Shown here one piece after another: positions 1 to 15,215 of a stretch of DNA of 15,215 nucleotides. The notes beneath the pieces were generated by a model, which ran no database searches, was not told the DNA's origin, and saw only the letters and a program-made list of their open reading frames with translations. The translations under genes were made by a program, and so were the position numbers. The stretch is from Candidatus Thorarchaeota archaeon (GTDB taxonomy: Archaea > Asgardarchaeota > Thorarchaeia > Thorarchaeales > Thorarchaeaceae). How positions within the stretch are numbered: position 1 is the first letter of the stretch; each line of letters begins with the position of its first letter. Where the stretch lies: positions 1-15,215 of the forward strand of contig JAEOTX010000249.1 in the NCBI GenBank assembly GCA_016839605.1, written 5' to 3'.

Positions 1-2
1 AT

Positions 3-986
3 AATCACATCGATGCTACTGCTTCATTCCTTGATGGTAGAAAAGTTGAGAGTGCCAAGACTATAGCAGGTTTGGTCTACGGCCTCACCAGATTCAAAGA
101 ACACCTTGAGCAGGGGATGTCCATGAGCCTTCGAGATTACTACTACATGCACAAGGTGAAACGAGTTCAAGCAGCACTCAGCATTGGCACACAAAATGAG
201 ACCAATAGAGCAATCAACCTTTGTGAACGAATTCTCAGGTCAAACGGAGAATCTATTCCGCGTGAGGAATTCGGTGTCGTTAGTTCTCCTAAAGGCACGT
301 TCTATGGTGATGTGACTCTCTCAGACCTTTCTGGAAAGAAAATCAATTGTGCAGGTGCTGGGGAGTATGGTTGGTTCATTTCATCGCGACCCTTTGAAGT
401 GAAGATTCATGACATCAACATAGATGCAGCCGTACTCGTGGAGAAAGAAGCCATGGCGCGAAACCTCATCGAGCTAGGAATCCCTGAAGACATGAAGCTC
501 GGAATAGGATCATTGTTTGGTCAGCCTGGGAGAAACATGCGAGCCTGGATTCGAAGGCTAGCAGATGCCGGTGTTCCGATTTTGGTTCTCGTGGACATGT
601 CGCCTTGGTCGCTGCGAATCTTCTCGACCATAAGGAACAACTCTATCGAACTTGCTAATATCGGAGGACTTGCGACGCCTGAGGCTCGTTTAATTGGGCT
701 AAGTATTGAGGATTTCTGGCGCAAGAAGGGAATGCTCAAGGACATCGAACACTCACTTGAGATGATGAGCAGCTCGGATATCAAGTGTGCACGTCAAAAC
801 CAATCCATTCCAGCTATAAGCCAGGATGAAATACTGAAACGTGAGAATGATACGATGCTAAAGAAGAAGAGGAAAGGAGAACTTGAAGCGTTCAAAGCAT
901 TTGGGCTCCCACTAAATCAATTAAAAACCGCATATATGAAATACATTCAGTCCAAAGCACGAGGCTTTGATGTGAAACTGATATAA
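3..986 (+). CDS. top6A: DNA topoisomerase VI subunit A / Spo11 family protein, divergent (5'-truncated)
   Basis: Frame is open from position 3 (NHIDATASFLDGRKVESAKTIAGLVYG...), so the true start lies upstream of the window. Collinear Top6A motifs: SLRDYYY (catalytic Tyr motif, 126-146), REEFGV..KG, VLVEKEA (Toprim Glu at 441-443), GQPGRNMRAWIRRL, LVDMSPW (DxD position, 594-602), LATPEARLIGL, KGELEAF. Confidence 0.9.
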   Translation, partial: NHIDATASFLDGRKVESAKTIAGLVYGLTRFKEHLEQGMSMSLRDYYYMHKVKRVQAALSIGTQNETNRAINLCERILRSNGESIPREEFGVVSSPKGTFYGDVTLSDLSGKKINCAGAGEYGWFISSRPFEVKIHDINIDAAVLVEKEAMARNLIELGIPEDMKLGIGSLFGQPGRNMRAWIRRLADAGVPILVLVDMSPWSLRIFSTIRNNSIELANIGGLATPEARLIGLSIEDFWRKKGMLKDIEHSLEMMSSSDIKCARQNQSIPAISQDEILKRENDTMLKKKRKGELEAFKAFGLPLNQLKTAYMKYIQSKARGFDVKLI

Positions 987-1022
987 GATACTGAATAATC
1001 AAGCATGTTTGGTGGAGATACT

Positions 1023-1679
1023 ATGTCAATGGACAAGGAGAATACGCTCGAAGATTTTGACAAATTGAGAGAATCTGTTGTCAAATTGCTGGATGAGCAT
1101 GACCGGCTAACTGGTGAGGTTGACAGCTATTCAAGTGAAGCAGAAGAGCTCCGTTCGGCAAAGAGAGAAGCTGAGGAAAAATCCTGGGCGGCTGAGGAAA
1201 GAGCGGACAAAGCGGAGAGCGCTCTCGAGGAGTCAGAGTCCAAATTGAAGAGTTCTACCGAGGAATTGGAGACTCTGAGGTCTGATACAACAAAAGACTC
1301 CGAGATAGACGACCTCAGAAAGGAGCGTGATGAGCTCAGATCTGAGATGGATGAGATAAATTCAAAGCTTGCACGAGTATCCGAGCTGTATCGGGAAACT
1401 TCGGCAGAGAAGGAGAAACTCCAAGAGAAAGTAGATGTGAGTGACCTGCTGGCAATCTACATTATTCTAATTGAGAACATCTTCGGTGGCAAGCCTCACG
1501 CAAGGGTGCTTTACACTCTGCACAACACAAAGACCGCCATCACTAGGAAAAATATCGAATCCAGTACAGGGATTATGGCTACAGCTGTTATGAAAGCAAT
1601 CCATGATCTAAGGAACGCTGAGCTTGTTTCCTACGATGATGATACACAAGAGGTCAAGCTGATAAAGGAAATAATGTAG
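1023..1679 (+). CDS. Coiled-coil protein with C-terminal winged helix-turn-helix domain
   Basis: About 140 aa of acidic heptad-rich sequence, then PHARVLYTL...ITRKNIESSTGIMATAVMKAIHDLRNAELVSYDDDTQEVKL (wHTH pattern with wing). Start moved to ATG 1023 because GGTGGAG (1011-1017) is a good RBS; ATG 1005 is the alternative. Confidence 0.75.
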   Translation: MSMDKENTLEDFDKLRESVVKLLDEHDRLTGEVDSYSSEAEELRSAKREAEEKSWAAEERADKAESALEESESKLKSSTEELETLRSDTTKDSEIDDLRKERDELRSEMDEINSKLARVSELYRETSAEKEKLQEKVDVSDLLAIYIILIENIFGGKPHARVLYTLHNTKTAITRKNIESSTGIMATAVMKAIHDLRNAELVSYDDDTQEVKLIKEIM

Positions 1680-1722
1680 GTCCAGAGAAGCATCTGGCGA
1701 TTGACCCTGAGAGTGTAAACCT

Positions 1723-2724
1723 GTGGGAAGAATAAAGTATGCACCAGAACTGAAGAAGTACGTGAGAAGGTACAATCTGGGAGAGAAACTCAGCTCCATT
1801 TTCTACCTTCTTGGCAACGATGCACAAAACGTAGTAAACTGGGCATTCAAAGAATCCAAAAGGAAACAAGAAGGGAGAAAGACACTACAGGGCATAGAAC
1901 TTGGAAAAGCAATGTTTCATTTGCTTGGAAGAACTGCAGCGGTTCGCCTAGTACAACAGAATCATGCTCGGAGAAGACTGACAACTAAGAGCGAGGTTCG
2001 GCTTAAGACCGGTCAAAAGATGGAGATGCCAGTCCTCTACCAAGAAGCCGGTCTTCGCCATCCCCAGGAAGCGCGGAACCTCAGGCATAACCTATTCCAT
2101 GAGGCATTTCACGCTTTGATCACTCATCTGTTCCCCGATGTAGAAACAAGTGTTCCTTCAACCGGAGAAGGACTTACCCCTGATCTTATGGTCAAGCACA
2201 AAGACCCAGCATGGACAATCTCAGTTGAGTATAAGGGGTATCGCTCAATTACTCTTCTTAGTGAGTCAGAGATTCTAAAAGGGATGCGATATCAAGCTGC
2301 CTACGGCACTGCATGGCTAGTGACCTCGACAACGAAGGATGTAAGCAATCTATACGGCACCACGATAAGTTCAGAGGAAGTTATTGAAAGAGGCTTAGCA
2401 CGACTCCGCAATATCTCAAAAAGAAGGGTCTATACATCTGAACAGAAGGAAAACAAGGGTATTGCCAGAAAAGGGATTTCACACCTGCAGAAACATGTCG
2501 GTGATGGTCTGCGTTGTAAGGTATTCTCCGCAGCTGACCTGCTAGACTCCTGTAAGGCAGGCAAACCCCTGAAAGGATTAGCTGTAACAACAGGGCTCGA
2601 TTTTGTTGACATGCTTTGTGATGTTGGAATGGAAAAGCATGCAGACAACGTATTAAGAATCATGAAAACTCCCGCTCGTTCGATACATAGTGACACGGTG
2701 ACATCAGTCAGGCTCATAGGATAG
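1723..2724 (+). CDS. PD-(D/E)xK restriction-endonuclease-like fold protein
   Basis: Helix NLFHEAFHAL, then TPDLMVK (PD at 2179-2184) and ISVEYKGY (ExK at 2227-2235), then a helix and the strand AWLVT. Basic helical N-terminal region. GTG start. Confidence 0.65.
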   Translation: MGRIKYAPELKKYVRRYNLGEKLSSIFYLLGNDAQNVVNWAFKESKRKQEGRKTLQGIELGKAMFHLLGRTAAVRLVQQNHARRRLTTKSEVRLKTGQKMEMPVLYQEAGLRHPQEARNLRHNLFHEAFHALITHLFPDVETSVPSTGEGLTPDLMVKHKDPAWTISVEYKGYRSITLLSESEILKGMRYQAAYGTAWLVTSTTKDVSNLYGTTISSEEVIERGLARLRNISKRRVYTSEQKENKGIARKGISHLQKHVGDGLRCKVFSAADLLDSCKAGKPLKGLAVTTGLDFVDMLCDVGMEKHADNVLRIMKTPARSIHSDTVTSVRLIG

Positions 2725-2833
2725 ACCGAAACTACTCGGTGGGACATATGCTCCCAAGCTTTATTTGCTGCCAGCCTCCAATCAAATAGTAGTGCCGTCT
2801 GAGAGATGGCCTATTTATTCCGAGGGATGGAAG

Positions 2834-3226
2834 TTGGTACAACCTGGCGCCGAAGAAGTGCCCAACATTCTCAAAGAGGTTCTGAAGAAGCTCTCCAATA
2901 ATTCGCCAATACTTGGTGCTGCCATCCTATCCGTGGAGGGATTACCACTTGTAAGTCATTTTCATGGTAGAACCGAAGAAGTTGCTGTTGCTGCGATGGT
3001 GGCAGGCATCCATTCGGCCGGAGAGCAGACAGTTCGAGAGTTGCGTCAGGGGAATCTCAAATCCATTATCATTCAAGGGAATCGAGGTGCCACCCTTGTT
3101 ATTTCGATGCCCTCAGATTACCTCCTTGCAGTGACTGCTCCTGAAAATGCGAGATTGGGTCTAATATTCAATGATGCCAAACGAGCAGCAAGGGAAGCAA
3201 GCAAAATTATCCGAGAGCTTGCTTGA
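2834..3226 (+). CDS. Roadblock/LC7 (MglB/LAMTOR-like) domain protein
   Basis: Classic pattern LKKLSNNSPILGAAILSVEGLPLVS...VAAMVAGIHSAGEQTVRELRQGNLKSIIIQGNRG...LAVTAPENARLGLIF. Start proposed at in-frame TTG 2834 (GAGGG at 2822-2826); GTG 2858 is the alternative. Confidence 0.9.
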   Translation: MVQPGAEEVPNILKEVLKKLSNNSPILGAAILSVEGLPLVSHFHGRTEEVAVAAMVAGIHSAGEQTVRELRQGNLKSIIIQGNRGATLVISMPSDYLLAVTAPENARLGLIFNDAKRAAREASKIIRELA

Positions 3227-3237
3227 GTGAGTGAGCA

Positions 3238-4062
3238 ATGGATCTAGCCTATCCTCCTGAACGTCATCCATGTTGGTCTCATTCCAGGTTCCGTATCTGG
3301 GAGCGGATTCATCTCCCAGTTGCTAAATCCTGCAATGTAAAATGTGCCTTCTGTGATTGGAATCACACTTCAAGCTGCCACACTCCAGCACCTGGGTCAT
3401 CCCGAATTCTAATGAACCCTGAAGAAGCTGTGAACAGAGCTCTTGAGGAAATTGAAAAAAGACCCAACCTCAAGATTGCTGCTGTATCAGGGCCAGGAGA
3501 GCCATTGGCAAATAATGAAACATTCAATACTCTCCAAGGAATCAAAGCAGCAATCCCTGACATTCATTTCTGTATAAGCACAAATGGGATACTTTTGGCA
3601 AACCAGGTTTCAAGGCTTTTGGAGTTGGATGTTGAAACAGTTTCTGTTTCAACAAGTACTACTAATCCTCGCTCTGCAGCAAGAATCTATGAATGGGCAG
3701 TGATTGATGGGAAACTGCTGCGAGGAGAAAAGATGGGGAAAGCGGTTATCAAGAAGCAGCTAGAAGGAATCTGTAAAGCAGTAAGTGCAGGCATTCGTGT
3801 GAAAGTGAATACTATTTTAATGCCCTCTATCAACGGTTATGATATTGGTGATTTGGCTAGACGAATTGCCAAAGCTGGGGCTACACTTCAAAATATCGTG
3901 CCCCTCGTTCCAACTGCCAACATGATGAAGGTTCCCGCACCATCTCTAGTGGAATTGGAGAAGGCAAGGCAAGTTGGCTCCTTATTTATCGACCAGTTCC
4001 ATCATTGTTATCAATGCAGAAGTGATGTTGTAGGAATCCCTGGAGATGATACACCCCTATAG
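3238..4062 (+). CDS. NifB-like single-domain radical SAM protein
   Basis: HPC (3265-3273), RIHLPVA, CNVKCAFC (CxxxCxxC, 3331-3354), SGPGEPLAN, FCISTNG, KVNT, QNIVPL and C-terminal CYQCRSDVVG match the NifB family layout. The ExRP and TxTxN signatures are altered, so the nifB symbol is withheld. Confidence 0.85.
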   Translation: MDLAYPPERHPCWSHSRFRIWERIHLPVAKSCNVKCAFCDWNHTSSCHTPAPGSSRILMNPEEAVNRALEEIEKRPNLKIAAVSGPGEPLANNETFNTLQGIKAAIPDIHFCISTNGILLANQVSRLLELDVETVSVSTSTTNPRSAARIYEWAVIDGKLLRGEKMGKAVIKKQLEGICKAVSAGIRVKVNTILMPSINGYDIGDLARRIAKAGATLQNIVPLVPTANMMKVPAPSLVELEKARQVGSLFIDQFHHCYQCRSDVVGIPGDDTPL

Positions 4063-4068
4063 AGTGTA

Positions 4069-4899
4069 TCAGACCGTGGTGAGACAACCATACTCCACAA
4101 GCTTGTTGATTAGGAACCAAAGCGCATTGCGGTCGTAGCGGTCGTTCTGTAGTGACTCGAAGACCTCACTGATTGATTTGACACCATCAAAAGTAGCAAA
4201 TAGACTATCTACAGCATTGGTCTCATATTGGCTTCGAAGCTTGTCCAGATCAGAGTCATCACAATCACTACATACAAGAATATCATTTTCAGAAAGCCTG
4301 CGCTTGAAGCCGATCCATTTGTACTTGGCAAGAGCAGAAACTGCACCAAGAACCTCCTCTTCAGGTAAGCCGATTAAGTCCAATATCTCTGCGACCGTGC
4401 GTTTTCCGTTGATGAAAGCCTCAACCTGCTCGAGCTTCCTATCAACATCACCCACACGGAATCCGATTCGAACTCCCCCAGACCTGCGAATCGGCACTAA
4501 ATCAAGGTCAATATCGAAATATGGAAACTCCTTGATGATATTAAGTGCAAAGTCCCTAAAGATTCTCACATCGCCCTCGAAATCTCTTAGCTTTCTGCCA
4601 TGCGTTGACTCAACATTTTGCAGAATTTTCTGCAGCTTCTCACGGTATGGTGCCTCGTCTGGAACTGGATCAACTACAAGAAGAACGAGTACTGTATCTC
4701 CAACTTCAATCAGGATATCGTATGCTGCTTTCCTGATTGTCCTAATAGGTGTCTTGGCAAAGATAATAACTGCCGTGACAAAGCCAGCAATAAGGTCTGG
4801 GTCAACGGTCATCTCAGCGTAGGGAACATTGAGAACGGATTCTCCACCTTCCATTCGGATAAGAGAGATATATCTGACCTTTTTTGTGTCAACAGTCAT
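4069..4899 (-). CDS. Longin-like domain + tandem winged-helix protein (NPRL2/NPRL3-like architecture), paralogue A
   Basis: N-terminal EGGE...DPDLIAGFVTAVIIF...FEGDVRIFRDF is typical of Asgard longin-like domains. Two wHTH modules: FINGKRTVAEILDLIGLPEEEVLGAVSALAKYKWI and FDGVKSISEV...INKLVEYGCL. RBS GGAGG at 4911-4915 (minus strand). Confidence 0.7.
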   Translation of the reverse strand: MTVDTKKVRYISLIRMEGGESVLNVPYAEMTVDPDLIAGFVTAVIIFAKTPIRTIRKAAYDILIEVGDTVLVLLVVDPVPDEAPYREKLQKILQNVESTHGRKLRDFEGDVRIFRDFALNIIKEFPYFDIDLDLVPIRRSGGVRIGFRVGDVDRKLEQVEAFINGKRTVAEILDLIGLPEEEVLGAVSALAKYKWIGFKRRLSENDILVCSDCDDSDLDKLRSQYETNAVDSLFATFDGVKSISEVFESLQNDRYDRNALWFLINKLVEYGCLTTV

Positions 4900-4948
4900 G
4901 CTGAAACATTCCTCCTATCCTATGTTCACTAGTGTGGTATGCTGTGAG

Positions 4949-4977
4949 AGACAAAGCCATTTTAATAGACTTTGTCT
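4949..4977 (-). promoter_or_regulatory. TATA-like box bracketed by a perfect 8-bp inverted repeat
   Basis: AGACAAAG (4949-4956) and CTTTGTCT (4970-4977) flank a 13-nt spacer containing minus-strand TATTAAAA (4960-4967), upstream of paralogue A. Confidence 0.45.
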
Positions 4978-4997
4978 GTGAAGAGGCAACGCAATGC

Positions 4998-5852
4998 CTA
5001 CGCGGTTTCCAGATCATGGTAACCCAGCACCCCCGCATCGATCAGGTTTTTTGCTACTGTTTTGACCGCCTCCATATTATACGGTAAGGACTCGCATACT
5101 TCATGGAGTGTTCTCGTGCCATCACAGAGTTCCACAAGAGCTGTCAGTTGGTCCCCATATACTCCTCGCAGTAGAAGAGGAGGCTCCATCACCTTCACAA
5201 GTATACTCTTCTCTTCCAAACGTCTATTCAATGTGATCCATTTGTAGCGGTCAAGCATTGAGAGTAATGCTAATGCTTCACCTTCCGGCAGCTCAGATTG
5301 GTCGATTATTTCGCCTATAGTTCGTTTCCCATTTATGAAGCCAGAGATTCGCTGTAATTTCTCATCAGTTTCGCCAACACTCCAAGGTATAACAGCCTGA
5401 AGATCAGGTGCTGCTTCAGATTTAGTTACCATTCGAGGAACCAGCTCCCAATCCAGTTTTCTGTATTGGAATATTTCGAGAATGTTGAGTGCGTACTCTC
5501 TGAATGGGCGGATGTCACCCTTCCAGTTCTGCAAATGCACTTCATATTCCGATTCAAATCTCTCAATGAGTTTGATGAGTGCTTGACGATACTCGGCATC
5601 ATCGTCCACTTTATCTATAATGAGAAGTCCGACCACATACTGCCCTTCTTCGATGACTACAACATAGCCTTCCTTAGTAAATGTCTTCAATTGCCGGTTC
5701 TCGAAGATGATGATGGCCAGCACAAAACTCGCGACCAAGTCCGGATCCACTGACATCTCACGATAGGGGATGCCAATTATTGGCTCACCTCCCTCCCTTC
5801 TCACCAATGAGAGGTAGCGGACCTTTGCACCTTGGTCTTTGGAGTCACTCAT
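4998..5852 (-). CDS. Longin-like domain + tandem winged-helix protein (NPRL2/NPRL3-like architecture), paralogue B
   Basis: Collinear with paralogue A (about 58 of 121 N-terminal residues identical, counted by hand without gaps). wHTH modules FINGKRTIGEII...LSMLDRYKWI and CDGTRTLHEV...KNLIDAGVL. Start reassigned to ATG 5852 (MSDSKDQG): it matches the start of paralogue A, removes the overlap with the upstream gene, and has TTATAT about 30 nt upstream (5881-5886). Confidence 0.7.
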   Translation of the reverse strand: MSDSKDQGAKVRYLSLVRREGGEPIIGIPYREMSVDPDLVASFVLAIIIFENRQLKTFTKEGYVVVIEEGQYVVGLLIIDKVDDDAEYRQALIKLIERFESEYEVHLQNWKGDIRPFREYALNILEIFQYRKLDWELVPRMVTKSEAAPDLQAVIPWSVGETDEKLQRISGFINGKRTIGEIIDQSELPEGEALALLSMLDRYKWITLNRRLEEKSILVKVMEPPLLLRGVYGDQLTALVELCDGTRTLHEVCESLPYNMEAVKTVAKNLIDAGVLGYHDLETA

Positions 5853-5898
5853 TATGATTAGTTGCAGGACAATTGACCAGATATAACTTGTCTGAACA

Positions 5899-6792
5899 TC
5901 ATATGAAATCAAGAAGGCCTGTTTGGGACACTACTCTCACGTCAGATGTGTCATCTAATTCGTAGCCAATCAATTCTGACAGGTTGGCTACCGTGAAAGC
6001 TGAGTCAATCCTAGTCACAAGTAGTGAACCTTTCATTCCTACAACCTGTCCCATCATCTGGAGACCCTCAATAGAGGTTCTCCCAGTCCGCCACCTTTGG
6101 GGTTCCGCATTCAATGAATCAATGTTATAGTGATTCGATAAGTCCTGCAGCCTTACCTCTGATTCAATTTCGATCTCCTTGACCGAATTGAGAAATCCTT
6201 GGGCGATGTCCTGAGCGATTTCCACACCAATAGGTTTCAGTAGGTGCATCGCCTTACGTTCAGCTCTGACTTGTTTCTTGACGTCGGGGCTAGTCCCTAG
6301 TCTACGTTCAATCTGACGCGCTTTCAAACCACCCTGGACAACTCCAATGATTCCACCGAAGTCAGCTCCCTGTTCCACCCAGCGAGTGACGACTCTTGAT
6401 TTCGAAGAAACACCAATCTTCAACGTATTATCATTGAAGACTGCAAGATAAACTGCGTATTCTGTTGATAGGCACCATTCTTTTCGTGAATCGCTCGCAT
6501 TGCAATCTCTGCCATCGCATCGAATGCATGGGTCCATCTCATCCATTGCAGAACATGGCCCACATCTACGCATCCCTCGTCGAACTAGGCTATTCTCAGG
6601 ACATCTTATCGGAACGCCATTTGAGTCTACACTACCTATGCAACGCTTTGGTCCATGGATTGTCCACGCTACTTCGTATCCTGATGGTAGAGGTAAGAAG
6701 CGGGGCGCGTCTGTATCATCTGACCAAACTCTGAGTCCGGATTCAAAGAAATCTCCACTCATAGGTCTCCACAAGACGTTCATCACTTGCAT
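5899..6792 (-). CDS. DUF2797-family protein (Cys-rich Zn-binding N-terminal part, C-terminal PIP-box-like motif)
   Basis: RCIG..CP..CGPC..CIRC..C..WC, then YAVYLA..LKIGVS..RWVEQGA..ARQIE..GQVVGMKGSLL..LSELIGY. Start reassigned to ATG 6792 (AGGAG at 6801-6805 on minus), which removes a 151-nt overlap with the upstream gene. Confidence 0.8.
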   Translation of the reverse strand: MQVMNVLWRPMSGDFFESGLRVWSDDTDAPRFLPLPSGYEVAWTIHGPKRCIGSVDSNGVPIRCPENSLVRRGMRRCGPCSAMDEMDPCIRCDGRDCNASDSRKEWCLSTEYAVYLAVFNDNTLKIGVSSKSRVVTRWVEQGADFGGIIGVVQGGLKARQIERRLGTSPDVKKQVRAERKAMHLLKPIGVEIAQDIAQGFLNSVKEIEIESEVRLQDLSNHYNIDSLNAEPQRWRTGRTSIEGLQMMGQVVGMKGSLLVTRIDSAFTVANLSELIGYELDDTSDVRVVSQTGLLDFI

Positions 6793-6803
6793 ATCAAAGA
6801 CTC

Positions 6804-7850
6804 CTAGAAGAATTTCAAGCGTGATGTGCCCTCGCCCATCCATCGCACTCCTTGAATATTCAGGTCTGCATTGCACTTGGGACATCGCCCTTGGTCGTTC
6901 AAATGGTTCTTCTTCAAATATACTGCGTAGCGTTCTATTGCTTTGAATCCACATTCTGGACAGTATGTGTTTTCATAGTCATGCCCACCAATATTTCCAG
7001 AATAGACAAACGTCAGTCCAGCTTCTTTCGCAATCTTGATGTGCTTCTCCAACATTCTTGCTGGAGTCCGTGGTAGACCTGTGATTTTAAATGTGGGAGA
7101 AAATGCTATAATGTGAAGAGGAGTCCGAGGGCCAAGATTTTCCACAACCCACTCTGCCAATGTTCCAGTATCATCCCCATGATCACCGATCTCTGGAATG
7201 ATCAAATTCGTGATTTCAATAAAGATGCCCTTCTCTTTCATGCGAACCATTGAATTGTATATTGGCTCAGATTTCGGAACATCCATGTATCGCTGCATGA
7301 ACTCCTTGTTCGCACTTCCTTTGAGGTTTATAGATGCCGCATCAAGGAACGGTGCAATGTAATCAACTGCTTCTGGAGTCATGTAACCGTTCGTGACGAA
7401 GGTGTTGAACATACCTTTCGAATTTGCTATCTTTGCAGTGTCATGCGCAATCTCCATGAAGATTGTTGGCTCTGTGTATGTGTACGTTATTCCAGCACAC
7501 TCAGTCTGTTGAGCCTGAGTCACGATTGCTTCAGGACTCATTTGACGACCTACTGGATTCTCTCTGTGGGAGGAGTGATAGTTCAGACAAAATTGACATC
7601 TAAAGTTGCATGATGAAGTGCTTATTGAAAACGTTCTAGAACCAGGTGCGAAATGAAATAATGGCTTCTTCTCAATTGGATCAGCAGCCATTCCATCAAT
7701 AAGCCCATAAACAGAGGTGTATAGCTTGGATTCTTTCAGGCTCCTAACTCTGCAGAAGCCAGTCTCACCCTCATGTATGACACACCTGCGGGCACACAAA
7801 TCGCATCTGACGCCTTTTTTTAAGCTGGAATAAAGCACGGCCTCTTTCAT
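6804..7850 (-). CDS. amrS: AmmeMemoRadiSam system radical SAM enzyme (PFL-activating-enzyme-like)
   Basis: MKEA start; CDLCARRC..GFCRVR; DPIEKKPLFHF; CNFRCQFC; YTYTEP; VTNGY; EITNLIIP; VYSGN..ENTYCPECG; CPKC. Start reassigned to ATG 7850. Confidence 0.92.
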   Translation of the reverse strand: MKEAVLYSSLKKGVRCDLCARRCVIHEGETGFCRVRSLKESKLYTSVYGLIDGMAADPIEKKPLFHFAPGSRTFSISTSSCNFRCQFCLNYHSSHRENPVGRQMSPEAIVTQAQQTECAGITYTYTEPTIFMEIAHDTAKIANSKGMFNTFVTNGYMTPEAVDYIAPFLDAASINLKGSANKEFMQRYMDVPKSEPIYNSMVRMKEKGIFIEITNLIIPEIGDHGDDTGTLAEWVVENLGPRTPLHIIAFSPTFKITGLPRTPARMLEKHIKIAKEAGLTFVYSGNIGGHDYENTYCPECGFKAIERYAVYLKKNHLNDQGRCPKCNADLNIQGVRWMGEGTSRLKFF

Positions 7851-7946
7851 ATTCAGGCTATCGTTCCCGCTGGCTCTTATTCGTCTTATGGTGCGTAATC
7901 GCAAAAGGGCGTGTGAAGATTAAAATGAGATTACATCTTATTACAG

Positions 7947-8399
7947 ATGGTTTCTCTCATGAGAGCGCCGAAGAATCTAGAAACACTCAGCGGTCTGTTT
8001 GGATCTGTGACAGATAGAACTAGACCATTTCTTAATCGGTGTTCTGAAACGAAGTATCTAGCTGTGACAGATTTCAGCAAAGCCACTGACCAGTATTTTG
8101 CGTTAGCTAAGCAAGCATTAGAAGGTCCTGAGAAGAAGATTGCTTCAGAAAGGAAATGTAAGGAGCAGTATCATGCCGTGAAGAGTGCCCTTGAGTCAGG
8201 CCAGCTCGGCCCTGAACTTGTTGATGCTCTCCAGTGTCTTAGGAGAACGTATGTACAGAATATTTTGAGGCCGGCAATGCAGGATTATATGAACAGTTCA
8301 GGAACTTCAACTAGAGTGGAGAAACTCTATGAGTGTGTACTACAGATAGATGGTCTTTTGGAAGTGGTCCAGTTCTTCGGAAAAGTACAGAAGGCTTAG
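7947..8399 (+). CDS. Hypothetical, predicted all-helical protein
   Basis: 150-aa ORF filling the gap between two minus-strand genes. AT-rich TATA-like ATTAAAA (7919-7925) lies about 25 nt upstream of the ATG, as expected for a leaderless transcript. No recognisable motif. Confidence 0.65.
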   Translation: MVSLMRAPKNLETLSGLFGSVTDRTRPFLNRCSETKYLAVTDFSKATDQYFALAKQALEGPEKKIASERKCKEQYHAVKSALESGQLGPELVDALQCLRRTYVQNILRPAMQDYMNSSGTSTRVEKLYECVLQIDGLLEVVQFFGKVQKA

Positions 8400-8403
8400 A
8401 CTA

Positions 8404-9861
8404 TCACTCCTCTTCTTCTTCCAGCACTACTAGCATTTTGTCCAAAACTATAGTCTGTCCGTCAGCCTCTATCCTTGCGATTCCCAGCTTCTGGTAATCC
8501 TCAACCCATTTTCTGACAATTGGTTGAGAAACACCTAATGCACTTGCTATCGCTTTCACAGACATCTCAGTATTTTCTTCGACCATCAAGAACCCCTTTG
8601 TCTTGTCGGTCGCTTCCATCAGACCGAGATATCCATCTAGACGAAACTCAGTGTATCGCAAACGTGCCAGGGTTTTGTTGTGATCTGTCTTCAGCCTTTC
8701 AAGAGTCGCGTTAATCCGTTCATGCTCGCTTTGGAGACGTTCCAGCTCCCGCATCTTATCTCCCGATTCGTAAGACCGAAGACGGCCCCGAAGATCATCG
8801 ACCTCAAGTAGTTGTTCCCTTGTGGCATCAATCTGAGTCTGTAGTCCAGTTACTTGAGCCTTCAAGTCACCAATCTCAATTTCCTTCTTCGCAACCATTC
8901 CTCTTTGTTCAGCAGAAGCCTTCTCTGCAAAATTAGCTCGGCTCTCTTCTTCACCTACTTTCTTTGTGAGAAGGTCACGTTCAGTATCAAGAGATTTCAC
9001 CTTTTGCCGGAGATCAACTAGGACATCTGCGTCAACTTGAGGGGTTGCCTTCATTTTTGCAATTGTCTCCTCAAGCAAGTCTTCTTTGGCCTTTGCTTCG
9101 ATGAAGTCACTCTGAACTCGAGCTATTTCCTCTTCCCTGTTCTTCAGACGCTCCTCGGCTACTCCTAGATCACGCGTGAGCTCTTCGACTTGTCGATCCA
9201 GCTCCTTAACTCTGTTAGTGAGTTCTACTGAAGTGATTTCTTTGGGTTTCATTAGTAGCTCTTTGGAGAGAAACTCAAGCTCGGTGGTTGCTCTCTGCGT
9301 GAAACCATCCACGCTTGTCTTTAGTGTGCCCATTTCTTCGAAGGTAGTCTTCATGGAACCCTTGAGACCTTCAGTGATATCCTTCACTTTCTCCATTACA
9401 GGTGCAGACATTCCAGTTGTGAGAGTTTCCTCGACCTTCTCAAACTCTTCATCAACTATGGACTTGACCTCGGTCTCAACATAAGAGGCCTGCATGTTGG
9501 TCTTAGCTCTACGTTTGCTCCTTCCAATAATAGTCGTTCTGAGGTTTACCAGATTCCCCTTCAGTCCGACCAAAAAGGAGAGGACAACAGGAACAAGGTC
9601 ACGTTCAACCCTGTCAACAGTTGCATCAACATTCATCATGTTACGTTCAAGGAGGACAAGACTATCTCTGAGTCTCTCCGCACTCCGTTCAATTTCCAAA
9701 CGACGACGAACCTGTTCTGCAGACTCGACCATGAATACGTCAGTCTGCAACCGTCCTGAGTCGATGAGTTCCTTCTTCAGACTATCATCGACACCGAGTT
9801 CCTCCAGCAATTCGTCGACCACTCCCGTTCGGTCGGGGGAGTCCTTAGGATCTTTGCTCAT
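8404..9861 (-). CDS. Long coiled-coil protein with C-terminal winged helix-turn-helix domain
   Basis: Extensive heptad-rich helical sequence, then KTKGFLMVEENTEMSVKAIASALGVSQPIVRKWVEDYQKLGIARIEADGQTIVL and an EEEEE tail. RBS-like AGGTGAGTGAGGT upstream (9868-9880, minus). No Walker motifs. Confidence 0.8.
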   Translation of the reverse strand: MSKDPKDSPDRTGVVDELLEELGVDDSLKKELIDSGRLQTDVFMVESAEQVRRRLEIERSAERLRDSLVLLERNMMNVDATVDRVERDLVPVVLSFLVGLKGNLVNLRTTIIGRSKRRAKTNMQASYVETEVKSIVDEEFEKVEETLTTGMSAPVMEKVKDITEGLKGSMKTTFEEMGTLKTSVDGFTQRATTELEFLSKELLMKPKEITSVELTNRVKELDRQVEELTRDLGVAEERLKNREEEIARVQSDFIEAKAKEDLLEETIAKMKATPQVDADVLVDLRQKVKSLDTERDLLTKKVGEEESRANFAEKASAEQRGMVAKKEIEIGDLKAQVTGLQTQIDATREQLLEVDDLRGRLRSYESGDKMRELERLQSEHERINATLERLKTDHNKTLARLRYTEFRLDGYLGLMEATDKTKGFLMVEENTEMSVKAIASALGVSQPIVRKWVEDYQKLGIARIEADGQTIVLDKMLVVLEEEEE

Positions 9862-9973
9862 AAGCGAACCTCACTCACCTATCACTCGTCGAGGCAATAG
9901 GTCAGGAGTAGCAGACAACACATAAATCTATTCGCAGTAGGAACGACTTGTTCCAATTAAGTGAGGCAGGGTA

Positions 9974-10810
9974 GTGAGACTGCGAATAGAGATGCAAGCT
10001 GACGTACTAAATCGGGGTAGATCCAAGATTCACAACGGACGACTGATTTGGCATCTCTTTACAGACATGGACAATCAATTCGTAGAGATGATTGATGTCT
10101 TTCCTCCTGCACGCGTGATGCAACGGGCAGAAAAGAACATCGTTGCAATCATGAAGGTTCCTGAAATAAGTCCAGGAGAAGCCTTCTCACCCACTGCAAT
10201 CCTACGGATTGATACAACATCCAGAGATTGGTTAATCAAACAGCAAAGAATCCCGGAGTCAGTAAGAAAATCAACAATTGGAATGTATAGCTCGATGCAG
10301 AAGTACTGGGAAATTGACAACCCAGTAATTCAATCCCTATCTCAAAGCATCGCTGAGAAGAGTGACGGGGATTTTACATTTGGCAAGCTTGCTTTTCAGG
10401 TGGTTCGAGAGCAAGTGAAACTGAAGACTCATCTTGATGAGAGGAGAGGCGCGGCCAGAGCAGCCGTAGAAAAGGAGGGGGATTGTGATGAACATGCAGA
10501 CCTATTCATCGCACTCACTAGAGCTGTAAACATTCCCTCCAGAAGAGTAATCGGTCATTTCTTCAAAGGGAAACCCGAGCCAGAGCCACATGCATGGTGT
10601 GAGATTTTCCTTGAGGATAATGGATGGGTGCCGGTGGACCCCGCCCTGGGTCGTTTTGGTGTTCTCAGTGAGAATTACTTCTCTCGAATTCGAGAGGGAC
10701 TTGTATCACAAAGACCCACAATTCAACTAAAAACGAGCAACTTAGACTCGGGATTGTTAAGCATCGAAGAGAATGTGACAATGGCGATTGTTAGAAACAA
10801 TCATGCTTAG
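9974..10810 (+). CDS. Transglutaminase-like (Cys-His-Asp triad) protein
   Basis: GDCDEHADLFIALTRAVNIPSRRVIG...HAWCEIF...GWVPVDP. GAGG RBS before the GTG start. No signal peptide evident. Confidence 0.9.
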   Translation: MRLRIEMQADVLNRGRSKIHNGRLIWHLFTDMDNQFVEMIDVFPPARVMQRAEKNIVAIMKVPEISPGEAFSPTAILRIDTTSRDWLIKQQRIPESVRKSTIGMYSSMQKYWEIDNPVIQSLSQSIAEKSDGDFTFGKLAFQVVREQVKLKTHLDERRGAARAAVEKEGDCDEHADLFIALTRAVNIPSRRVIGHFFKGKPEPEPHAWCEIFLEDNGWVPVDPALGRFGVLSENYFSRIREGLVSQRPTIQLKTSNLDSGLLSIEENVTMAIVRNNHA

Positions 10811-11538
10811 AAGCCAGAAATCTTCCCAGACTCCAATAGGGTCACAAACATTTCAGCGCCGAATTCCCAGCATCCATGTGTATCAAAGATGCAGCATCGA
10901 ATTTTAGGCAGAAGCGGAGCATCGAACGCGCTTCTAAGGGTTCCAGCAAGATGATGAGCCATCATCTCGCCATAAGCCGCGATTTGTGGCATTACTTCTA
11001 AGAATCGATTACCAATGGATCGCATAGGACCTGGTTTGTAATCGCATACTTCAACGGTATCACCCACAAACCGAAGCAGGTCTATATGTCCGGAGAGACG
11101 ATATCGGTCAGACCACACGGGGACTTCGATGGCAATTGTATTAGGATCACGAAACAGAAACTCTCTCACTATCTTATGGTCAGCATTGTAAGACAAATCA
11201 TTAGTTGCCCGATGGTAATCCCTTAGCTTGTCGACGAGGTCACTATCGATGAAACGCTTCACTGAGCCAGTACGGAAAAAACGGTTTCTCAACGCTGCCT
11301 TTTTGGCAGCATTCATTTTCGGTAGTTTGAGTGAGGATGCTCTAGCATAGAATGGATCTGAGAATGGTTCAGATGGAACTTTGCCTGAGGTGATAGTTAT
11401 CATATGAGCCCATAGTGAAGCGAGATCCCCCTCATGTTTTCCGAGCCGTTCATGGTGCGTCTTATTCCATTGAAAGCCATAAGCAACCTTTCCATGCTTG
11501 AACTCACGTCGCGCGATATCAGGCTCCCTAGATGACAT
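10807..11538 (-). CDS. PD-(D/E)xK nuclease, RecB/AddB-like motif set
   Basis: H..V..F...IAIEVPVW...LSGHIDLL...VCDYKP...QIAAY contains the E, GxxD, DYK and QxxxY motifs. GGTGA RBS upstream. Stop overlaps the convergent gene by 4 nt. Confidence 0.8.
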   Translation of the reverse strand: MSSREPDIARREFKHGKVAYGFQWNKTHHERLGKHEGDLASLWAHMITITSGKVPSEPFSDPFYARASSLKLPKMNAAKKAALRNRFFRTGSVKRFIDSDLVDKLRDYHRATNDLSYNADHKIVREFLFRDPNTIAIEVPVWSDRYRLSGHIDLLRFVGDTVEVCDYKPGPMRSIGNRFLEVMPQIAAYGEMMAHHLAGTLRSAFDAPLLPKIRCCIFDTHGCWEFGAEMFVTLLESGKISGF

Positions 11539-11607
11539 GACTCACCGAATTACAGCTAGTGCTCAATCTTTTTAATTCACCGAACTCATAGTATTTCGGG
11601 GACTAAG

Positions 11608-11904
11608 ATGACGTATTCGTTTATTGTGTTCTACCGATTCCAACTCATGGATGAGGAAAAGGCAAAGAAGGCCAAGAAATTCTGGACAATCTTCTCAAAG
11701 GATGATTGGCCAAGCGACATTAAAATCGTGGGGGACTATCGTCATGCATGGGGAAGTGACTGGAGTGGGTTTCTATTCATTGAAGTCGAAAATCCAGAAC
11801 GCTTCTTCGAGTTCTGGCCGAAGTTCCGTGATAAGACTCGATTCTATCTAGAAAACACGCGTACCATCATCGGCGTCAAGAGAGAAACAGATGAACGGCT
11901 ATAG
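11608..11904 (+). CDS. Small ferredoxin-like / dimeric alpha+beta barrel protein (DUF3303/GYD-like)
   Basis: beta-alpha-beta-beta-alpha-beta pattern: FIVFYRF / helix / IKIVGDY / WSGFLFIEVEN / helix / TRTIIG. TTTTTAAT at 11569-11576 is a candidate TATA shared with the divergent gene. Confidence 0.55.
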   Translation: MTYSFIVFYRFQLMDEEKAKKAKKFWTIFSKDDWPSDIKIVGDYRHAWGSDWSGFLFIEVENPERFFEFWPKFRDKTRFYLENTRTIIGVKRETDERL

Positions 11905-11938
11905 CCGCAGCTAATATGAGTGAAGCAGAGCGAGGACC

Positions 11939-11961
11939 GGGAGGGCCGCCTAGGCCCACCC
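11939..11961. terminator. GC-rich hairpin between convergent genes
   Basis: GGG-A-GGGCC-gccta-GGCCC-A-CCC lies between the stops at 11904 (+) and 11966 (-). There is no U-tract, so terminator function is uncertain. Confidence 0.4.
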
Positions 11962-11965
11962 AGAA

Positions 11966-12724
11966 TTAGCCATGGTTTAGAGCGGCGTCCTCCATCAATC
12001 CTACAATCCATTTGAGATCCTTCTCTGCGATGCCCTCGCCACTACGATAGATCATCAACGAACCAAGATCTGCATTGACGGTAGTTGTATGCTGTGCGCC
12101 ACTCGGATATGGAAACGTGCCACGGAAGCGCGAAATCTCTCCTCTATACTTACGAGTGTATAGGCCTATCTCTGCTTCATTCTTGATAGATACGCCACGG
12201 AACTCAGCCTGGGTGAGATTGCCCCTCTCCACGCCAGATAGCATGACGGATGCGATATCAGTGGCCTCCCCATATATCGATTTCATGCCTTCAGAATTGA
12301 GATTTAGAGGTGTAAGCTTAGCGCCTGTATGTTCCTCCATTAACATTCGGAACTTTCTTGCGATACGCTCTGATCCTCTGACTTCGACAGTGCGTTTTCC
12401 AGTCTTGACAAACACTTGCGCTTTGCTTACGCTTATGTAGTGCACGGGCTCCAATCTGCCACCTGTGCCATAGGTCAGAATAGGCACTTTGAACCCTGCA
12501 ATGATTTCTCCCTGAACAGTCTTCCCTGTTGCACTAACTTTGGAGAATCCTGCTCCAGCATGTTTCTTGCTCTTAGGTGCATACTTGACCTTTTTTAGTG
12601 CTGTCGCGATCTGAGCAGCATTGCTCTTGGTCCCTTCGTATTTGTAGAGCTTTACCGAAAGTCCCACGCCTGTGGGTCTCAGTAATTCCGGCTTCTTCTT
12701 TTTCTTCTTCGTTGTCTTGCTCAA
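11966..12724 (-). CDS. Hypothetical strongly basic alpha/beta protein with N-terminal poly-Lys tract
   Basis: 252-aa ORF with TTG start, beginning MSKTTKKKKKKP and Lys/Arg-rich throughout. TATA-like TTTATATT on the minus strand at 12811-12818. Confidence 0.7.
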   Translation of the reverse strand: MSKTTKKKKKKPELLRPTGVGLSVKLYKYEGTKSNAAQIATALKKVKYAPKSKKHAGAGFSKVSATGKTVQGEIIAGFKVPILTYGTGGRLEPVHYISVSKAQVFVKTGKRTVEVRGSERIARKFRMLMEEHTGAKLTPLNLNSEGMKSIYGEATDIASVMLSGVERGNLTQAEFRGVSIKNEAEIGLYTRKYRGEISRFRGTFPYPSGAQHTTTVNADLGSLMIYRSGEGIAEKDLKWIVGLMEDAALNHG

Positions 12725-12893
12725 GATGTCTCAACTCGGTGTGTTTCATGTTCTCCGAGGTATCAGTGTCAACTGACCTTCGTTTCCGATGGAAATAAGG
12801 GTATGGATTCAATATAAAGAGAACATCAAATCCAGACAATAGCAGCGTGTAGCTGGAGCAATACGTACATACTAATCCGGGTATGAAATCGGA

Positions 12894-12952
12894 CCCCTCC
12901 AAGAAATAGGCCTCGATATGCTATTTCTTATTTGGCGCCAAATAGGGAGAGG
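12894..12952. repeat. Adjacent inverted repeats: 9-bp IR plus 16-bp perfect palindrome inside a purine/pyrimidine closing stem
   Basis: AAGAAATAG (12901-12909) / CTATTTCTT (12921-12929); TATTTGGCGCCAAATA (12929-12944); CCCCTCC (12894-12900) can pair with GGAGAGG (12946-12952) with one mismatch. Confidence 0.6.
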
Positions 12953-13411
12953 TCAGTCAGAATCGCCAATAATATTCAGGATTAACCCGTGTGCTCGAGG
13001 TTTGTCTGATACGAAGGGGACGAATGTCTTTGAGCGTGCCTCTTTGATGCAATCCTCTAGTGAATCAGGATCGCGGCACCAGATGAGATGGTCTCTTCTT
13101 GCCAGCTCCCCAATCAACTGTGCTTGATGTCCTTCCATCAGAGTAGTGTTCTCAACTACAACCAGTCGTTTTCCTTTTGTCACACATTCAATGGTTGTAC
13201 CTGCTCCCCCCGTACTCACAATGATATCAGCTGCTTCGTAAGCCCTGTTGAGTGACTTGATGAATCGAAAGAATCGCATATTTCTTGGTTCATACTGTCC
13301 TCGACCAATCTGAGCCACAACAGTCTCTTTGATGATTCCATCTCTAACCAGCTTGTCCATTACCTTCACGAGTGGGTCAAACATGGCAGTGCCAACTGTA
13401 AGAAAAATCAC
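12953..13411 (-). CDS. alg13: Alg13-like glycosyltransferase subunit (GT28 C-terminal / PssE-like)
   Basis: IFLTVGT.FDPLVK..D.L...VVAQIG...ADIIVSTGGAGT...LVVV...HQAQL. The GTG start overlaps the alg14 stop (GTGA, 13408-13411), which suggests translational coupling. Confidence 0.85.
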   Translation of the reverse strand: MIFLTVGTAMFDPLVKVMDKLVRDGIIKETVVAQIGRGQYEPRNMRFFRFIKSLNRAYEAADIIVSTGGAGTTIECVTKGKRLVVVENTTLMEGHQAQLIGELARRDHLIWCRDPDSLEDCIKEARSKTFVPFVSDKPRAHGLILNIIGDSD

Positions 13412-13890
13412 AGAAGCTGACCTCCATAGACCGCCTCTGGGATCCTATCGGCAAGATCAGGCCATTGAACCAGAAAGAGGTCAGTCTTTCCTCTTAGCAG
13501 TCTTCCAGTAATCGAAAGAGACTCCACTCTTGACATGCTCTCAATGAATACTGTCTTGATGCCTAGGAGACGCGCAGCATAGAACACTGGCACAGTGAGA
13601 CCAGTCCCGCAACTCACTACAACAACTGGGCGATACAAGACAAAGTAGATGATAGAGGCTATCAATGTGAATAGAGTGCGGATCACTGACAAGATGCGAG
13701 AGTCCTGAGGTAGTAGTCTCGGTGCAAAGACACGCCGTATCTTACCTTTGATGCGAATCTTCGTCGGAGTTAGACGATCTAAGAATCCAATCAAATAGAG
13801 ATAGCTAAATCGGTCACCAAGAAGGTCGACGAGGGCGAATGTCTGCGCTGTGTGACCGCCACGACCTAAGACAACAGCTATTCTCTTCAT
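13408..13890 (-). CDS. alg14: Alg14-like glycosyltransferase subunit (PssD/CpsF-like)
   Basis: VVLGRGGHT...RPVVVVSCGTG..VP...VFIESMSRVESLSITGRLL...FLVQWPDL...YGG. Start reassigned to ATG 13890 (MKRIAVV). Confidence 0.88.
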   Translation of the reverse strand: MKRIAVVLGRGGHTAQTFALVDLLGDRFSYLYLIGFLDRLTPTKIRIKGKIRRVFAPRLLPQDSRILSVIRTLFTLIASIIYFVLYRPVVVVSCGTGLTVPVFYAARLLGIKTVFIESMSRVESLSITGRLLRGKTDLFLVQWPDLADRIPEAVYGGQLL

Positions 13891-14019
13891 TCCGACGTCA
13901 CGCACATCTAGTGATTTCTGCAATGCTAGATAAAGAGTTCTCGATGGCTAGATTCCAAGTGGAAGACAAACGCTGACTACTTAAAGCAGATTTAACCCAC
14001 CGTGCTTCGAGGGAATCCT

Positions 14020-15215
14020 ATGACAATTGTCGAGCCTTCAGGTACACATCCCCTGTACAAAGAGATCAAGAGCATAGTCGGTGAGGCCCGAGTCAATGAT
14101 AATCAGCTGATTATCTCAGCATATAGTCAGGATGCATGTCATATCACAGCTGAGAGACCTGGCATTGTAGTCATGCCCGAGAGTGTGGAAGAGATTCAAG
14201 CTATTGTAAAGCTGTGTGGAGAATCCAAGACACCGCTTGTGCCTGCAGGTGGAAGGAATGGAATATGCGGTGCGTGCCTTCCTCGGGTACCAGATGCCGT
14301 GATGCTCGATATGGTCAAGATGGATGAGATTATTGAAATCAACGACGATGTCATGTCGGTGACAGTTGAAGCGGGACAGAGGTGGGCAGAACTCATCCAC
14401 CGACTTGATGACAAGGGCTACAAACTGGGCTTTCGAGGTCCATACGGCGGGAATGTAGGAACCGTTGGGGGCGCAACTAGCATAAACAGTATTGGATATG
14501 CAGCTTCCAAGTATGGCCCATCAACTGAAGGAGTTGTTTCGCTCGAAGTTGTTCTAGCAAATGGCGAGGTCATTCAGACAGGTACTGGCTGGAACAAAGG
14601 TGCAGAGCTCTTTGGTAGATACTCGACATATAATGACTTGACTGGAATATTCCTTGGAGACCATGGCACTCTCGGAATCAAGACGAAAGTGACTCTCAAG
14701 ATTTACCCAAAGGCGGAGCACATAACATATGGAGACTTTGGATTCAAGACACTTGAGGAGGCAACCGCCGCCTTTCTTGAGGTTCAGAAGCGAGGACTAA
14801 CTGAAGAACTCAATCTATTAGCAGACAGACAATCAACTGATACATTCTTTCCTGGATTCTTGGACAGCCACCCCGAAATCCATGCTATGTTCGCATCCAT
14901 TGTGCAAGAATCTGACGAACAACTGGCTCAGCGTAAGATGGAGATAGTGAGGGAAATCGCGCTAGAACATGGAGGGAAGGATCTAGGTAATTTTGCCTCT
15001 CAGATGCATTGGACAGAGCTCTTCAATCTAGTTCAGCCTCTCTACAACAATGGGTTCTGGCTGAACACCTGTCACCTCAGACCGATCACAACAATTCCGG
15101 GGCTAATGAAGAAACTGTGGGCAATCTTTGATAAACATAAGATGCTGAAGAACGGAATCAAATGGATTGCCAGCTGCCTGGGAGCAGACCGAGCATATGC
15201 CACTGGATGGATTAC
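14020..15215 (+). CDS. FAD-binding oxidoreductase, GlcD / D-lactate dehydrogenase / alkyl-DHAP synthase (VAO/PCMH) family, 3'-truncated
   Basis: Absent from the ORF track because there is no stop in the window. Translated by hand: MTIVEPSGTHPLYKEIKSIVG...AYSQD...RPGIVVMPESVEEIQAIVK...LVPAGGRNGICG...LDMVKMDEIIEIN...VTVEAG...TVGGATSIN..G...KYG...SLEVVLANGEVIQTG...DLTGIFLGDHGTLGIKTKVTLKIYP. GAGGG RBS at 14009-14013. Confidence 0.92.
   Translation, partial: MTIVEPSGTHPLYKEIKSIVGEARVNDNQLIISAYSQDACHITAERPGIVVMPESVEEIQAIVKLCGESKTPLVPAGGRNGICGACLPRVPDAVMLDMVKMDEIIEINDDVMSVTVEAGQRWAELIHRLDDKGYKLGFRGPYGGNVGTVGGATSINSIGYAASKYGPSTEGVVSLEVVLANGEVIQTGTGWNKGAELFGRYSTYNDLTGIFLGDHGTLGIKTKVTLKIYPKAEHITYGDFGFKTLEEATAAFLEVQKRGLTEELNLLADRQSTDTFFPGFLDSHPEIHAMFASIVQESDEQLAQRKMEIVREIALEHGGKDLGNFASQMHWTELFNLVQPLYNNGFWLNTCHLRPITTIPGLMKKLWAIFDKHKMLKNGIKWIASCLGADRAYATGWI

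Follow-up and report, generated by a model that had tools for sequence, protein, structure and literature searches.

A conserved tandem pair of NPRL2-like longin and double winged-helix genes in Thorarchaeota

Results

Genes A and B are co-oriented paralogues

The stretch of DNA analysed here (the window) comprises 15,215 nucleotides of a Candidatus Thorarchaeota archaeon (contig JAEOTX010000249.1, assembly GCA_016839605.1). It carries two adjacent genes, called A and B in this report, each of which encodes a small protein with a predicted longin domain followed by two winged helices. A preliminary description, made from the letters alone, had likened the pair to NPRL2 and NPRL3 of GATOR1, and had proposed that they may act with roadblock proteins in a pre-eukaryotic nutrient-sensing circuit. 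Our analyses indicate that the two proteins are built like NPRL2 and NPRL3 and probably represent a duplicated Asgard NPRL2-like protein that runs parallel to GATOR1.

Both genes lie on the same strand with B upstream of A, and they are separated by an intergenic gap of 98 bp (Table 1). The longest open reading frame (ORF) of B begins with a TTG at position 5912 and would run into the stop of the upstream gene. BLASTP aligned A and B with 114 of 274 residues identical (42%, E 4e-66), and the two are paralogues, as the preliminary description had stated. Identity by domain is 57/126 (45%) in the longin domain, 32/63 (51%) in the first winged helix and 16/57 (28%) in the second. For the longin domain, the earlier hand count had given about 48%. 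The motifs quoted earlier can also be read in both translations, namely LVP...D.KL..FINGKRT(V/I).EI followed by (V/L)S.L..YKWI, and then a second DG element in the form of FDGVKSISEV (A) or CDGTRTLHEV (B). Pfam and NCBIfam scans assigned no family to either protein. A search with A returned 283 homologues at E<=1e-3, and those that carried a name were mostly from Candidatus Thorarchaeota.

Each protein is predicted to consist of a longin domain and two acidic winged helices

AlphaFold2 models were built from the family alignment for A (predicted local distance difference test score 89.2, predicted template modelling score 0.79) and B (82.3 and 0.79). Both models open with a beta-beta-alpha-beta-beta-beta-alpha domain, after which come a short strand with the LVP motif and a pair of winged helices. 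The N-terminal domain of A superimposed on the longin domain of Sec22b with Z 15.4 and a root-mean-square deviation (rmsd) of 2.1 over 118 residues, and the longin of 3egd_C gave Z 14.3 for A (rmsd 2.8, 122 aligned) and Z 14.0 for B. Overall, Sec22/VAMP7 longins scored Z 14.0-15.4 with rmsd 2.1-3.0 over 118-122 residues. Other longins also matched A, including those of Fuzzy (Z 13.7), Mon1/Ccz1 (Z 10.6-10.8) and C9orf72-SMCR8 (Z 9.5). Judged by the models, the N-terminal domain is a longin fold in both proteins, in keeping with the earlier proposal. A roadblock/LC7 identity was considered for these domains and rejected, as they start with two strands, have no N-terminal helix and gave no Robl_LC7 match; roadblock chains scored Z 8.6-11.1 over 89-101 residues, below the longins. 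Searching the ESM Atlas returned only clusters of archaeal hypothetical proteins.

All winged helices of A and B are acidic, with net charges of -1 to -6 (-6 for the second of A), and the isoelectric point of the whole proteins is about 4.85. This charge bears on the possibility that A and B are transcription regulators, with the longin domain as a sensor of some ligand or partner and with DNA bound by the winged helix-turn-helix (wHTH) domains. The family does show weak, sporadic matches to TrmB, HTH_24, IclR and MarR-type PDB chains, and the syntenic block also contains genes for two coiled-coil/helix-turn-helix (HTH) proteins. However, DNA binding fits poorly with four acidic winged helices. 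Moreover, the only full-length structural matches are NPRL2/NPRL3 chains, which do not bind DNA, and paralogues are fused or adjacent to nucleoside triphosphatases (NTPases). We consider a role in transcription improbable.

The domain order of A and B is that of NPRL2 and NPRL3

When the model of A was compared with the PDB using Foldseek, ranks 1-13 were all taken by SEAC/GATOR1 chains (E 2e-7 to 1.8e-4, 320-369 columns). The top match was 8adl_S, named Npr2 (E 2e-7, 356 columns), and matches after rank 13 were longin-only, for example sigma-adaptins. For B, the four SEAC/GATOR1 chains that led the list for A again took ranks 1-4, and ranks 6, 7 and 9 were also SEAC/GATOR1 chains; the lowest E among the SEAC/GATOR1 matches of the two proteins was 1.6e-7. 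Similar results came from the VIA-wide structure search, which is independent of Foldseek. Among the best 50 matches considered for each model, only two were full-length. For A these were 8adl_S, with 251 residues aligned (Z 10.3), and the NPRL2 chain 8fw5_B, with 244 (Z 9.9); for B they were 8fw5_C, with 247 (Z 10.5), and again 8adl_S, with 245 (Z 10.3). These superpositions had rmsd values of 8.4-12.0 Å. The best full-length PDB matches are thus Npr2/NPRL2/NPRL3 chains that extend across the longin and winged-helix regions, as the preliminary description had anticipated. In the models, the domain order matches that of NPRL2/Npr2, whereas the rigid arrangement does not.

A marginal likeness was also seen in sequence. 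Profile A1, made from 27 diverse members of the family, had human NPRL2 as its best PDB match (E 0.0037), with yeast Npr2 at E 0.19. The alignment joins residues 118-215, a stretch that opens with LVP and closes with the first winged helix, to residues 155-251 of NPRL2 (6ces_N), and the motif common to both sides at the first winged helix reads VP...D...IDG/ING.R...I. The post-longin motif of NPRL2 quoted in the preliminary description is recovered at the profile level, where the string is printed for PDB chain 6ces_N. Single-sequence searches of the PDB gave nothing meaningful (best E 0.35, SNF12).

A one-to-one correspondence of A and B to NPRL2 and NPRL3 was also considered. Because A and B best match the same Npr2/NPRL2-type chains, the top four in Foldseek being identical, the equation of A with NPRL2 and of B with NPRL3 was not supported and was dropped. 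Within 8fw5, the best chain in the VIA-wide search was chain B for A and chain C for B, the latter being presumably NPRL3 from the chain numbering, and the two Z-scores (9.9 and 10.5) are tied.

The tandem is kept at most loci of the family

Matches to the protein family were found in 180 of 301 sampled genomes of the phylum, including all 76 genomes of the window's own family. We compared 20 loci from 16 genera of this family and one sister-family genome, and the B-to-A tandem was present in 17 of them. Both loci from genus g4 have A only, and the sister-family genome has a single copy that is 31% identical to A and to B. In a quick maximum-likelihood tree of archaeal family members, the A clade (g4 genes included) received 99 and the B clade 100 in the SH-like approximate likelihood ratio test (SH-aLRT). 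A and B share 42% identity with each other, and only 7-16% with GATOR1/SEAC chains in structural alignments. From this comparison of identities, we infer that the duplication took place within Thorarchaeota and independently of the NPRL2/NPRL3 split.

Sister copies are linked to P-loop NTPases

Family profiles were searched against 7227 ORFs of at least 70 amino acids (aa) from the genome, which comprises 3.08 Mb and is 80% complete. Family domains were found in 15 ORFs. In a 647-aa paralogue (G000:C65:8790-10733, loci L004/L065), an N-terminal domain precedes an Arf/Ras-type G domain (Arf E 2.7e-17), which a low-complexity linker joins to the same longin and double winged-helix module as in A and B. 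Another paralogue of 624 aa (C113, L068:4062-6553) is followed immediately, on the same strand, by the gene for a 176-aa Ras-family GTPase (E 2.2e-45), and a further one of 301 aa (C38, L069:46-1869) is likewise followed by the gene for a ParA/MinD-type ATPase. Of three full-length single-copy homologues from outside Thorarchaeota, one was located two genes from an Arf-like GTPase. Besides A and B, the genome encodes a third close paralogue (G000:C116:19503-20126, L003), a 207-aa protein that is 40% identical to A and has the longin domain and first winged helix only. This gene is kept across the genus and follows an ABC-transporter gene pair.

B was also searched against 1.84 billion representatives, which gave 101 matches at E<=1e-3, and 32 of these were scanned with Pfam. 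Arf/Ras domains were present in two, Ig/PKD-type domains in nine, KaiC ATPase domains in two, PCI/wHTH arrays in two and prenyltransferase repeats in two; two had HTH/winged-helix families only, and 15 matched no family. Such varied partners agree with the preprint of Liu et al. (bioRxiv 10.1101/2020.10.19.343400), which notes that numerous signalling domains occur in fusion with the NPRL2-like longin. The nine proteins with Ig/PKD-like repeats (P0157, P0160, P0170, P0174, P0195, P0201, P0209, P0211 and P0217) are 841-2774 aa long and have a longin-type domain at or near the C-terminus, and two of them also have a KaiC-type ATPase domain. This layout suggests that the longin-type domain may act as a cytoplasmic output domain of surface proteins.

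The same genome was searched for partners of GATOR1. Gtr1_RagA gave seven matches, all in frames of 180-217 aa or in the 648-aa fusion; the two that were scanned scored far better as Ras. None of the seven was a Rag-type GTPase with a roadblock tail. In this 80%-complete genome, IML1/DEPDC5 (IML1, PF12257) gave no match at E<=1.

Conserved residues at the expected GP site and in a longin loop

In longin regulators with catalytic activity, a GP motif has been described directly before longin strand 2 of the catalytic subunit, beside the arginine finger (outlined in Traffic 2025, PMC12290439). The catalytic arginine fingers named in the accounts of PMC8534245 and PMC12999518 are R78 of NPRL2 and R84 of Npr2. 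We located the GP site in A and B by the DSSP strands of the models, not by structural superposition. In A it is occupied by G18-G19-E20-S21, which is invariant in 24 A orthologues, and in B by G21-G22-E23-P24, which is invariant in 17 B orthologues and amounts to G-x-P, with the proline one residue further on. A also has two arginines, R53 and R56, in the loop between helix 1 and strand 3 that are invariant or nearly so in the 24 A orthologues and are not conserved in B. On sequence, GTPase-activating protein (GAP) chemistry is neither favoured nor disfavoured for A and B.

Gene neighbourhood

The features of the locus are collected in Table 1.

Table 1. Genes A and B, their predicted domains and annotated neighbours in the window (H, helix; E, strand)
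Feature	Position	Strand	Description
Gene A	4069-4899	minus	276 aa, ATG start; NPRL2-like, longin + two winged helices
A longin domain	4522-4899	minus	Residues 1-126; E8-15, E21-26, H34-47, E54-56, E61-66, E70-76, H83-105 (DSSP of model)
A first winged helix	4264-4452	minus	Residues 150-212, FINGKRTVAEI...YKWI; H150-162, H169-176, H180-192, E196-200, E207-210 (model)
A second winged helix	4072-4263	minus	Residues 213-276, FDGVKSISEV; H215-224, H227-236, E238-242, H243-251, H257-269, E273-275 (model)
Gene B	4998-5852	minus	284 aa from ATG at 5852; paralogue of A, same three domains
B longin domain	5466-5852	minus	Residues 1-129; E11-18, E24-29, H37-51, E57-60, E63-69, E73-80, H86-102 (model)
B two winged helices	5001-5375	minus	Residues 160-222 and 223-284; model secondary structure
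Robl_LC7 roadblock gene	2765-3226	plus	Robl_LC7 E 9.8e-15; convergent; context only, not shown as partner
NifB-like radical SAM gene	3238-4062	plus	274 aa; NifB 207 bits vs equivalog cut-off 343.65
DUF2797 gene	5899-6954	minus	Pfam/NCBIfam; co-oriented upstream of B
AmmeMemoRadiSam-type radical SAM gene	6804-7904	minus	Pfam/NCBIfam; co-oriented upstream

The whole window (1-15215) forms one syntenic block of about 15 kb across 16 genera (loci L037-L056). The gene order is topo VI A, coiled-coil wHTH, orf1723, roadblock, NifB-like radical S-adenosylmethionine (SAM) protein, A and B, followed by DUF2797, AmmeMemoRadiSam-type radical SAM protein, orf7947, coiled-coil HTH, transglutaminase, PD-(D/E)XK and orf11966. 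Since the block is syntenic throughout, the neighbourhood at this locus says little about function.

The convergent roadblock gene that had been noted about 0.85 kb away is indeed present, ending 842 bp from the stop of A with a radical SAM gene in between, and it is one of eight Robl_LC7 matches in the genome. A roadblock homologue occupies the same convergent position in all 20 related loci. As the block is wholly syntenic, this adjacency counts as one event and not as 20 repeated ones.

B starts 46 bp from the stop of the DUF2797 gene, and the DUF2797 and AmmeMemoRadiSam genes may form one operon with B and A. The AmmeMemoRadiSam gene is kept in 20/20 related loci, co-oriented with B/A that follow it, the DUF2797 gene in 16/20 and the NifB-like gene between A and the roadblock gene in 19/20. 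This arrangement raised the question of whether A and B could be accessories of a radical SAM enzyme, with the second winged helix serving as a PqqD-like peptide-recognition domain for the AmmeMemoRadiSam-type or NifB-like enzyme. Weak PqqD matches were in fact found in the second winged helix of B (E 3.2e-4) and in homologue P0136 (E 7.9e-4). However, the B match scored 20.5 bits, far under the curated cut-off of 46 bits. With both radical SAM proteins of the window as queries, tblastn found no homologue at the three loci outside the order, and a Radical_SAM domain was absent from all 17 neighbouring ORFs scanned there. Other paralogues pair with NTPases and not with radical SAM genes. We regard an accessory role of this kind as very improbable.

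Several smaller features of the block were also recorded. The NifB-like protein consists of a NifB-like core and does not have the remainder of NifB. Taken at its longest, the DUF2797 ORF shares about 150 nt with the end of the AmmeMemoRadiSam gene, so that the true DUF2797 start probably lies further downstream. Coiled-coil proteins that end in an HTH/winged helix are encoded at 1005-1679 (plus strand) and 8404-9861 (minus strand); the 485-aa one matches HTH_23 (E 2e-5), and both are kept in the block. In one locus (L052, G155:C4), the B, NifB-like and transglutaminase genes each appear in two tblastn pieces, which may be frameshifts or assembly errors.

Discussion

Our studies suggest that A and B are members of the Asgard NPRL2-like family and arose by a tandem duplication in Thorarchaeota that has been kept since. 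We further suggest that their longin domains form a dimeric platform for a P-loop NTPase, and that the system is a parallel to GATOR1 rather than a proto-GATOR1 nutrient sensor. We give this interpretation as a whole a probability of roughly 0.6. The proposed build is minimal, in that a longin domain and two acidic winged helices would provide what NPRL2 and NPRL3 have apart from their insertions. By analogy with all solved longin regulators, pairing would take place through the longin sheets, presumably as A with B where both exist and as A with A where B is missing. Paired longins that cradle a small GTPase have precedent among longin-dimer regulators, as set out in PMC8213707 and PMC8534245. 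The dimer of A and B would bind a P-loop NTPase, most probably an Arf-like or Rab/Ras-like small GTPase of the genome, and would set or read its nucleotide state, while the winged helices would act as protein-protein adaptors and not as DNA binders. Dimerisation, partner and any GAP or guanine nucleotide exchange factor (GEF) activity are predicted here from the build of the proteins and from the sister copies.

Several results weigh against this interpretation. In the structural comparisons, whole-chain fits were loose, with template modelling (TM) scores of 0.33-0.42 and rmsd values of 8-14 Å. A profile of A orthologues (A2) had no NPRL2 among its nine PDB matches, and a profile of B orthologues (A3) had no PDB match at all; since these narrower profiles lose NPRL2, sequence homology to NPRL2 comes down to the one marginal match of A1. 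The preliminary description had named the Pfam profiles NPR2 (PF06218) and NPR3 (PF03666) as a check on the resemblance, and neither recognised A or B at E<=0.1 or any ORF of the genome at E<=1. Given these results and the marginal profile link, A and B are classed here by their NPRL2/3-like build and are kept apart from the curated eukaryotic families. B does not appear to be obligatory either. A query with B in three g4 genomes (96-99% complete) returned only the A-type gene at 39-45% identity, which indicates that B is dispensable there. The quick tree does not sort out the branching among A, B, the single copy of the sister family and the remaining paralogues, so that A and B are not necessarily each other's closest paralogues. 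As to catalysis, neither A (GGES) nor B (GGEP) has the GP dipeptide in the strict form known from longin GAPs, no arginine of either protein could be mapped onto NPRL2 R78 or Npr2 R84, and the candidate position, R53 of A, varies in the wider family between R, K, S, V, M and E. Lastly, the paralogue linked to the ParA-type ATPase shows that the module is not specific to small GTPases, and no NTPase gene was found in the window by the ORF list and Pfam scan, which agrees with the earlier caveat that a GTPase is missing there.

According to the proto-GATOR1 proposal, an A:B heterodimer would be an arginine-finger GAP for a Rag-like GTPase, with the roadblock neighbour as a Ragulator analogue in nutrient sensing. 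The NPRL2/NPRL3-like build seen with Foldseek and in the VIA-wide search is what such a complex would require, and this part of the proposal stands. The two arginines of A that are invariant in its lineage, together with a convergent roadblock gene that is kept at all 20 loci and, in the sister-family genome, lies directly adjacent, would also be in keeping with it. In contrast, the correspondence to NPRL2 and NPRL3, an Iml1 homologue, a Rag-type GTPase and an independent roadblock linkage all failed to emerge. The roadblock adjacency counts as a single event, and no roadblock gene lay near the full-length single-copy homologues of other Asgard families (0/3 loci, all outside the order). Gtr1_RagA matches are limited to small frames or a fusion, and the two scanned are better described as Ras; no IML1/DEPDC5 match was found in the 80%-complete genome, a strict GP motif is missing, the arginine position varies across the family and B is absent in one genus. 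Taken together, these results make a proto-GATOR1 unlikely.

Within the interpretation of A and B as a longin-dimer platform, a more specific version can be put forward. A and B could form an asymmetric longin heterodimer that acts as a GAP or GEF for an Arf-like or Rab-like GTPase of Thorarchaeota, with A giving R53/R56 and B giving the GGEP loop. We offer this version only tentatively and think it rather doubtful; the direction, GAP or GEF, cannot be read from a modelled longin fold. If it were true, the design in which two longins cradle a GTPase, as in GATOR1, folliculin and C9orf72-SMCR8, would either have arisen independently or have been present already in minimal form in Asgard archaea. 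Should A and B act on a small GTPase as regulators, no smaller NPRL2/NPRL3-type module would be known. The pair would then also provide a tractable, soluble-sized system for studying the pre-eukaryotic origin of longin-dimer GTPase switching, and the NTPase-linked sister copies name concrete candidate partners.

Among proteins of known structure, A and B are most similar to NPRL2-NPRL3 (Npr2-Npr3 in yeast; GATOR1/SEACIT, the GAP for RagA/Gtr1). Both pairs have an N-terminal longin domain followed by winged-helix-like modules, and both are encoded by paralogous genes. However, A and B fall short of the eukaryotic proteins by about 100-300 residues and do not have their insertions. They also differ in that they are not recognised by the Pfam NPR2/NPR3 models and have neither a strict GP nor a mapped arginine finger. 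Their duplication is apparently independent, B is dispensable in one genus, and neither Iml1/DEPDC5 nor a Rag-type GTPase was found in their 80%-complete genome. The longin fold is further shared with FLCN-FNIP and C9orf72-SMCR8, which are GAPs, and with Mon1-Ccz1 and Fuzzy-Inturned, which are GEFs; these have downstream DENN or further longin domains, not two winged helices. In bacteria, roadblock and Ras-like GTPase genes occur together with conservon CvnC (DUF742) and with HTH_47 winged helices. A DG.RT-type winged helix is common to these and to A and B. Among the A1 members, DUF742 matched 1 of 27 and HTH_47 matched 2 of 27, DUF742 or HTH_47 also matched two single-copy homologues from other Asgard families, and the second winged helix of B has a weak match to HTH_47 (E 0.019). 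Nevertheless, such matches are sporadic in the family and mostly below the cut-offs, and CvnC has no longin domain.

A full-text literature search found no paper that joins Thorarchaeota, longin, GTPase and winged helix, and the terms GATOR, NPRL and winged do not occur in Tran et al. 2024 (PMC10933270). The closest precedent is found in Liu et al. 2020 (bioRxiv 10.1101/2020.10.19.343400), which describes (Fig. 5c) an NPRL2-like family with a longin domain and an NPRL2-specific C-terminal domain in most Thor metagenome-assembled genomes (MAGs). A family that fits A and B was thus catalogued in 2020/21. The words "tandem" and "heterodimer" do not occur in the main text of the Liu et al. preprint. 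Relative to that main text, three points are therefore added detail, namely a B-to-A order that is strictly kept, a genus in which B has been lost, and three sister copies fused or adjacent to P-loop NTPases; the pair itself may already be shown in Fig. 5c or the supplements. The preprint later appeared in Nature in 2021. In build and in distribution, A and B resemble the Asgard NPRL2-like family described there, with matches in all 76 genomes of the window's family and homologues named as Thorarchaeota, and they probably represent the asCOG of Liu et al.

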